From: Escherichia coli
GTDB lineage: Bacteria > Pseudomonadota > Gammaproteobacteria > Enterobacterales > Enterobacteriaceae
Direction: 5' to 3' (one strand)
DNA length: 64,000 bases
Assembly (NCBI RefSeq): GCF_016903815.1
Contig: NZ_CP069973.1
Both the position numbers and the translations under genes were made by a program. Positions 22,883 to 25,163 of this stretch are shown here, piece after piece. The first letter of the stretch is position 1; every line of letters begins with the position of its first letter. A model generated the notes under the pieces. It ran no database searches and was not told the DNA's origin. It saw only the letters and a list, made by a program, of their open reading frames with translations.

Positions 22883-24556
22883 TCAGGAGAGATATTCCGC
22901 CACCGGACCAAGCGCCAGGGCAGGGATAAAGGTCAGTGCGCCAACCAGCAACACGGTGCCGATTAACAGGCCAACAAACAGCGGGCCGTGCGTTGGCAGC
23001 GTGCCGGAGCTGGCGGGTTGGCTCTTTTTACTCACCAACGAACCGGCAATTGCCATCACCGGGATAATCACCCCGAAGCGACCGACAAACATGCAGAACG
23101 CCAGTAAACAGTTCCAGAATGGGGAGTTGGCGCTTAATCCGGCAAAGGCGCTGCCGTTGTTGTTAGCGGCGGACGACACGGCGTACAGCACTTCGCTAAA
23201 ACCATGCGGGCCAGGGTTGAGCATGGCGCTACGTCCGGCGTCGGTCATCATTGCCAGCGCCGCGCCCATCAGCACCAGTGTTGGAGTAACCAGAATCGCC
23301 AGTGCAGTCAGTTTCATCTCGCGTACGTCGATTTTTTTACCCAGATATTCCGGTGTACGACCAATCATCAGCCCGGCAATAAACACCGCCAGCAGAACAA
23401 ACAGCATCATGCCGTAAAGACCAGAACCGACACCGCCGAATACCACTTCACCAATTTGCATCAGCCACATCGGCACCATGCCACCGAGAGCGGTAAACGA
23501 ATCATGCATCGCAATCACCGCGCCACAGGACGCCGCCGTAGTCACGACCGCAAACAGGCTACTGACCAGCACGCCGAAACGGCTCTCTTTACCTTCCATA
23601 TTGATGCTGCTGTCCGCACCCAGCGCCAGCAGATGAGGATTACCCTGAACTTCTGCCCACATCACCACGCCTACGCAGATGACAAAAATCACTGACATCG
23701 CCCACAGCAACATGCGCCCCTGGCGGCGATCGCCCGTCACTTCACCAAAGGCAAAGCACAGCGCTGTTGGGATCAAGAAGATCGCCAGCATCTGCACGAA
23801 GTTGGTCAGTGCGGTTGGGTTTTCAAACGGATGCGACGAGTTGGCATTAAAGAAGCCACCGCCGTTAGTACCGAGCATCTTGATCGCTTCCTGAGAAGCC
23901 ACCGGACCCATGGGTAACAGCTGTTGCGCTCCTTCAACGGTATTCACCGCCTGATAGGGCAGAAAGTTTTGCAGTGCACCTTGTTGAATAAAAAACAGTG
24001 CGATCAACAACGCCACAGGGACTAGCACCCATAACGTGATGCGTAGCAGATCGACCCAGGCATTCCCGAGTGTGCTCATGCTCTGGCGGGTAAATGCACG
24101 GATGAGGGCAAAAATCACCGCAATCCCGCTGGCGGCAGAAAGAAAGTTTTGCACCGTTAAGCCCGCCATCTGGCTGAAATAGCTCAACGTGGTTTCACCG
24201 CTATAAGATTGCCAGTTGGTATTGGTGACAAAGCTGACGGCGGTATTCAGCGCCAGATCCCACGACAGCCCTGGCAACTGCTGTGGATTAAGCGGCAGAT
24301 AGTGCTGACCGAGCAACATAAAAAACAGCACCGCCAGCCCCAGCATGTTCAGGCCGAGAATGGCAGAGAGATACTGCTTCCAGTTCATCTCACTGTCAGA
24401 GACGCCAGGTAAACGAAAAAGTACGCGTTCAACACCCGCTGTACCGGGAAGAGGTATGTCGTTAATCAGCCGCGCCAGCCCGCTGCCTAAAGGACGCGCC
24501 AGCACCATTAACACCAGTAAAAACGTGGCAATCAGTAAGAACCCTTGCGCAGCCAT
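22883..24556 (-). CDS. kdpA: K+-transporting ATPase channel subunit KdpA
   Basis: 557 aa from [16 protein letters not shown]...; the ORF-track entry extends upstream to 24751, which would read through kdpF. Confidence 0.95.
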
Positions 24557-24645
24557 CAGAACGCCTCCGCATTGATCAGGGCATAAACCAGATAACCCAG
24601 TAATAAAAACACCAGCAACACGCCGGCTATCACGTCTGCACTCAC
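24556..24645 (-). CDS. kdpF: K+-transporting ATPase small subunit KdpF (29 aa)
   Basis: Direct translation (V/M)[28 protein letters not shown] with a GTG start preceded by GGAGG at 6 nt spacing; stop TGA overlaps the kdpA ATG (TGATG). Confidence 0.75.
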
Positions 24646-24956
24646 AGTGCACCTCCAGTGGCCTAAAAGTGATACCGGAAGGGTAGAATTCTGGCTGCAA
24701 AGATTTCGCAAAAATCTTCGGGCGGGATGTAAAAAAAGTATAAAATGGCAAAAGCCATGATTTAACTGATGGTTAGTATTAATTTAACTTTTGTGTAACT
24801 TAATTACACGATGAATGTAAATAAACCATCAATAAGCAAAAATAAGTGGTCGGATGAGTAGTAAAATTACACAAAAGGCGGTACTATTTTCATCAGATAA
24901 ACAAATTCATTTTTCCGGTGCCATTCACCGGGTAGATACAAAAGGGGGAGAAAAGT

Positions 24957-25163
24957 ATGGAACTCTACAGAGAATATCCTGCATGGCTTATCTTTTTACG
25001 CCGTACTTATGCGGTTGCAGCGGGCGTTCTGGCGCTGCCTTTCATGCTTTTCTGGAAAGACCGCGCCCGCTTTTACAGCTACCTGCACCGCGTCTGGTCG
25101 AAAACCAGCGAGAAACCGGTGTGGATGGATCAGGCAGAAAAGGCAACTGGTGATTTTTACTGA
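24957..25163 (+). CDS. ybfA: small membrane protein YbfA (DUF2517)
   Basis: 68 aa [40 protein letters not shown]...; recognised as YbfA. Confidence 0.85.

Follow-up and report, generated by a model that had tools for sequence, protein, structure and literature searches.

KdpF has been described as a single transmembrane (TM) helix that stabilizes the KdpFABC complex (PMC8385062), and it has been reported to be non-essential for transport in vivo (Gassel 1999, as cited in PMC3618439). The kdpFABC promoter carries a KdpE footprint that extends from -72 to -50 (PMC3264566), with the two half-sites placed at -67 to -62 and -56 to -51 (bioRxiv 10.1101/256826). Members of the kdpF family are small open reading frames (ORFs) of about 25-32 codons that lie directly 5' of kdpA, next to it or overlapping it, as the first gene of kdpFABC.

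The window analysed in this study is a 64,000-nt stretch of Escherichia coli DNA (contig NZ_CP069973.1 of assembly GCF_016903815.1). The 5' end of the kdp operon was located on its minus strand, with the following genes and junction:

24556..24645, minus strand: kdpF ORF (29 codons and a TGA), GTG at 24645-24643 (identified by translation, NF011332, KdpF chains in the PDB and position in RefSeq)
22883..24556, minus strand: kdpA, the downstream operon gene, ATG at 24556-24554 (RefSeq annotation)
24554..24558, minus strand: TGATG junction, in which the kdpF TGA (24558-24556) and the kdpA ATG share one base (same in RefSeq)

Read from 24645 to 24556 (reverse complement), the kdpF frame is GTG AGT GCA GAC GTG ATA GCC GGC ... 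GCG TTC TGA; a plus-strand reading of 24556-24645 was ruled out, with stops throughout. The ORF has the size and placement of the family, and it is the real kdpF gene, not a chance frame. Its product matched the NCBIfam equivalog NF011332 (K(+)-transporting ATPase subunit F) with 71.3 bits (cutoff 56), residues 1-29 aligning to model positions 1-29, and the TIGR02115 profile with 31.7 bits (cutoff 26.85). KdpF chains in 25 KdpFABC structure entries (e.g., 6hra_D and 5mrw_D) were matched as well, with 27 of the 29 residues identical to the KdpF chains in the solved structures. In every RefSeq record inspected, kdpF was annotated at the corresponding position; this includes E. coli strain 2779, which was 100% identical to the window over the 501 nt compared and has its RefSeq kdpF at the same place. 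The predicted product is a single hydrophobic TM helix belonging to the KdpFABC complex; as a 29-residue helix it would sit in the KdpFABC K+ pump and stabilize it.

The stop codon of kdpF overlaps the ATG of kdpA, and translation of kdpA is therefore probably coupled to that of kdpF. A one-base overlap of this kind (TGATG or TAATG) was observed in most of 28 Enterobacterales loci, and the remaining loci have no more than 3 nt at the junction. In E. coli SCPM-O-B-8794 (L009:1196-1203), the junction reads TAATG instead of TGATG with the one-base overlap retained; KdpF of the same strain carries V20I. The kdpA frame is open in the 5' direction through all of kdpF and into the promoter (22883-24751, minus strand; a 622-aa ORF from TTG), so that kdpF is wholly contained in an open alternative frame continuing into kdpA. 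An out-of-frame GTG at 24652-24650 also belongs to the kdpA frame.

Two further genes were found on the opposite strand:

24957-25163, plus strand: ybfA, 68 aa
25411-29550, plus strand: ORF of 1379 aa, annotated as Rhs in a related genome

The annotation suggests that the second of these encodes an Rhs core protein. The kdpF-ybfA-Rhs neighbourhood was annotated likewise in the related genome.

The kdpF start codon is preceded by a ribosome-binding site (RBS), in which the out-of-frame GTG is embedded:

24652..24656, minus strand: Shine-Dalgarno GGAGG, spaced 6 nt from the GTG; extended by two bases it reads GGAGGTG (24656-24650)

The initial annotation had placed the 29-codon frame exactly, naming no strand, and had read the GTG with GGAGG 6 nt upstream; both can be seen directly in the sequence, where the spacer between GGAGG and GTG is TGCACT. 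It had also taken kdpF of K-12 to start with ATG, and this was wrong. Alignment to the K-12 reference showed a GTG behind the same RBS in K-12 NCM3722, and the start region GGAGGTGCACT-GTG was common to K-12 NCM3722, O157:H7, SA186, THO-008, and MMC-J-0085, with the Shine-Dalgarno GGAGG unchanged throughout a five-strain alignment. The longer stretch CACTGGAGGTGCACT-GTG-AGTGCAG was identical in the window, NCM3722, O157:H7, SA186, THO-008, MMC-J-0085, 2779, and 5283, and RefSeq puts the kdpF start at that GTG in each of the aligned strains. Since K-12 kdpF has GTG and the same RBS, no allelic difference exists at the start codon. The attribution of ATG to K-12 may stem from protein records, which print M first whatever the start codon; likewise, the M1 of the KdpF sequences in the PDB reflects the annotated gene and is not an independent mapping of the start.

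The start region was then compared across complete E. coli genomes using a 50-mer probe, composed of the GTG, the 40 leader nucleotides before it, and the seven bases after it. It was identical in 5125 of the 5418 matching genomes. When GTG in the probe was replaced by ATG, no exact match was found among 5405 E. coli genomes, each of which had at least one mismatch. Two of the 293 genomes with a differing 50-mer were inspected, and in both the changes were in the leader/promoter with the RBS and start codon intact; with two inspected, start codons other than GTG and ATG may rarely occur among the 293. In K-12, about 14% of the genes begin with GTG (Blattner 1997, quoted in PMC5345727), and a GTG start is thus unremarkable in itself.

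The distribution of start codons outside E. coli was studied in a sample of one genome per species, by scanning for the KdpA N-terminus and reading the small ORF directly 5' of kdpA. Codon 1 was GTG in 23 of 28 Enterobacterales loci, including those of Escherichia albertii, Citrobacter, Kluyvera, Klebsiella, Serratia, Yersinia, Erwinia, Rahnella, Pectobacterium, and Providencia, and ATG in the other five (Hafnia, Mangrovibacter, Rosenbergiella, Edwardsiella, and Budvicia). Beyond the Enterobacterales (Burkholderia, Paraburkholderia, sphingomonads, and rhizobia), ATG was mostly observed. Since GTG is normal in E. coli and in most of the sampled Enterobacterales, the start codon needs no explaining. 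The initial annotation's reading of a strain-specific change from ATG to GTG, here extended to a lowered KdpF expression, drew its only support from the supposed K-12 ATG; against the GTG of K-12, which refutes it, the lack of the ATG form in the 5405 genomes, and the prevalence of GTG in the order, its probability is practically negligible.

The seven bases of GGAGGTG are complementary to the 3' end of 16S rRNA. Within the 20 nt upstream of codon 1 (L008-L035), this motif was present in 21 of the 23 GTG-start loci and in none of the five ATG-start loci. The pattern fits compensation of the weaker start codon by a strong RBS; shared ancestry would explain it just as well, because the ATG genera are more distant. 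In the window, translation would start at the GTG via this strong extended Shine-Dalgarno sequence, with its GGAGG core 6 nt upstream. A kdpF with a 1-nt frameshift was observed in Pantoea stewartii subsp. stewartii CCUG 26359 (L023:1113-1201). The two halves are in different frames, N-terminal VSAGVITGIVLVVLLLAI and C-terminal ...GYLVYALLNAEAF, each running to a stop, and the gene is either a pseudogene or the product of a draft-assembly error.

The promoter region was compared with the published KdpE site:

24728..24744, minus strand: KdpE half-sites TTTATA (24744-24739) and TTTACA (24733-24728), half-site definition as in PMC3264566

Both half-sites and the 5-nt spacer are intact in the window. 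Using the published numbering, which is that of a promoter derivative, +1 would fall close to 24677; taking TACCCT (24685-24680) as the -10 element would move it a few bases downstream. A scan for consensus sigma-70 promoters between 24540 and 24900 gave no site, and this absence fits an activator-dependent promoter. Expression of kdpFABC would be expected from a KdpE-activated promoter under K+ limitation. Two terminator-like matches from the same scan, one within kdpF and the other within the region of the KdpE sites, were taken as chance. Five differences from K-12 were found between 24718 and 24772 (minus strand): the T-run adjoining half-site S1 on its 5' side is one T shorter (between 24746 and 24745), C→T occurs at 24727 (the first base 3' to half-site S2) and C→A at 24718, and 24772 and 24768 are changed as well. 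Because 127 of 5423 genomes shared 99% identity or more across the 501 nt, these differences look like a lineage haplotype.

It has to be considered whether kdpF is translated from another codon: an in-frame one upstream would lengthen the product, and an internal GTG or TTG would shorten it. The initial annotation had allowed for an upstream in-frame ATG; it was looked for, and no ATG is in frame upstream of the GTG. The frame is open upstream only to a TTG at 24711, from which a 51-aa product would be made, and the internal GTG/TTG codons available are codons 5, 9, 10, and 12. A literature search for mapping of the kdpF start codon or initiation site returned nothing specific to E. coli, and to that extent leaves room for such starts. 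However, with either placement of +1, the TTG at 24711 opens TTGCGA, a hexamer resembling a -35 element, about 34 nt before the predicted mRNA 5' end. The 51-aa extension was rejected because this TTG is in the -35 region and upstream of the predicted transcription start. The in-frame leader codons between the TTG and the GTG (CCG GTA TCA CTT TTA GGC CAC TGG AGG TGC ACT) include no start codon, and no Shine-Dalgarno sequence was found before the internal codons 5, 9, 10, and 12. Across genera, GGAGG(TG) is kept at a fixed distance from codon 1, residues 1-4 are kept as protein (VSAG, VTAG, VSIG), and the full-length alignment to the 29-residue NCBIfam model begins at residue 1. Based on these data, initiation at another codon is very improbable. 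The GTG at 24645-24643 is most probably the initiation codon in vivo, as backed indirectly by the conserved Shine-Dalgarno spacing and by a leader free of other in-frame starts.

Three coding differences from K-12 were detected in kdpF, two of which change the protein:

24635, minus (coding) strand: SNP G→A, codon 4 GGC→GAC, Gly4Asp; rare (alignment to K-12, O157, and others)
24627, minus strand: SNP A→G vs K-12, codon 7 ACC→GCC, Thr7Ala; common (alignment)
24619, minus strand: synonymous change vs K-12, codon 9 (alignment)

The initial annotation had read SADVIAG in place of SAGVITG for K-12, and here it was correct: the K-12 translation has SAGVITG, and both differences (G4D and T7A) are real. 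Its description of the start and the substitutions together as a minor allelic difference is correct for the amino-acid changes, of which only G4D is uncommon, and incorrect for the start codon. Ala7 was also found in O157:H7, THO-008, and many other strains, and the residue at position 7 is freely variable between genera (T, A, I, C, G, L). The exact 90-nt allele of the window was present in 2 of 5,426 complete genomes, those of strains 2779 and 5283, which are Houston blood isolates with the same KdpF and KdpA accessions; the window was probably drawn from this clone or one closely related to it. At the protein level, the D4 peptide was found on 46 public contigs, compared with at least 1000 for each of the G4 alleles, MSAGVIAG... 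and the K-12 form.

In the 28 Enterobacterales species, position 4 is occupied by G, S, A, L, or F and is charged in none; for this reason G4D might not be fully neutral. It could be proposed that G4D is functionally important, altering the packing of KdpF on KdpA/KdpB or its membrane insertion, and that it is adaptive or deleterious in a bloodstream clone; the restriction of the D4 allele to a small set of isolates would agree with this. We consider this improbable. KdpF has been reported to be dispensable in vivo (in the citation of Gassel 1999 noted above), and Asp4 borders the hydrophobic core on its N-terminal side, right at the helix terminus, with the opposite, C-terminal end likewise acidic (Glu27). 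In kdpF of E. coli 2014C-3075 (NZ_CP027447.1, L088:1492-1569), 12 nt have been lost in frame between two GGCGTG direct repeats; the resulting KdpF of 25 residues (VSAGVLLVF...) is without residues 4-7, and RefSeq starts it at the same GTG. The D4 allele persists on the 46 contigs, and the predicted mRNA fold is the same with the D4 SNP. When the leader and start region was folded as RNA, no significant structure was predicted (window, z = -0.9; K-12, z = -1.2), and a structural role for either the G4D SNP or the GTG was rejected on the basis of the unchanged minimum free energy (MFE) shape and the non-significant z-scores. The more specific proposal, that G4D measurably alters membrane insertion of KdpF or stabilization of KdpFABC with consequences for the fitness of a bloodstream-associated clone when K+ is very low, seems slightly less probable still. 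Asp4 is most likely tolerated, as supported by the natural KdpF of 2014C-3075 without residues 4-7, and G4D would then be neutral or nearly so. It is a clone-level polymorphism in a 29-residue accessory subunit and could serve as a lineage marker.

The kdpF gene described here is a known gene in the ordinary E. coli configuration, with minor allelic variation. We regard it as nearly certain that it is an ordinary first cistron of kdpFABC, that its GTG is a species-wide and largely order-wide state, and that its only peculiarities are T7A and the rare G4D, the latter most likely neutral or nearly neutral. The finding matters very little; what it corrects is the start codon assigned to K-12 in the initial annotation, since GTG is the normal first codon of kdpF in E. 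coli and most sampled Enterobacterales.

In comparison with described KdpF proteins, that of K-12 (KDPF_ECOLI; WP_001272653.1; 6HRA chain D, 5MRW chain D) shares 27 of 29 residues with the window. The two genes are alike in length, site 5' of kdpA, GTG start, GGAGGTGCACT RBS region, and TGATG overlap, and K-12 differs in having Gly4, Thr7, and the one synonymous difference at codon 9. The common E. coli/Shigella allele MSAGVIAG... (P0001, "MULTISPECIES: Enterobacteriaceae") has Ala7 like the window and Gly4 instead of Asp4. The closest relative is KdpF WP_204638449.1 of strains 2779 and 5283, for which no difference from the window was detected in either the protein or the 90-nt DNA.
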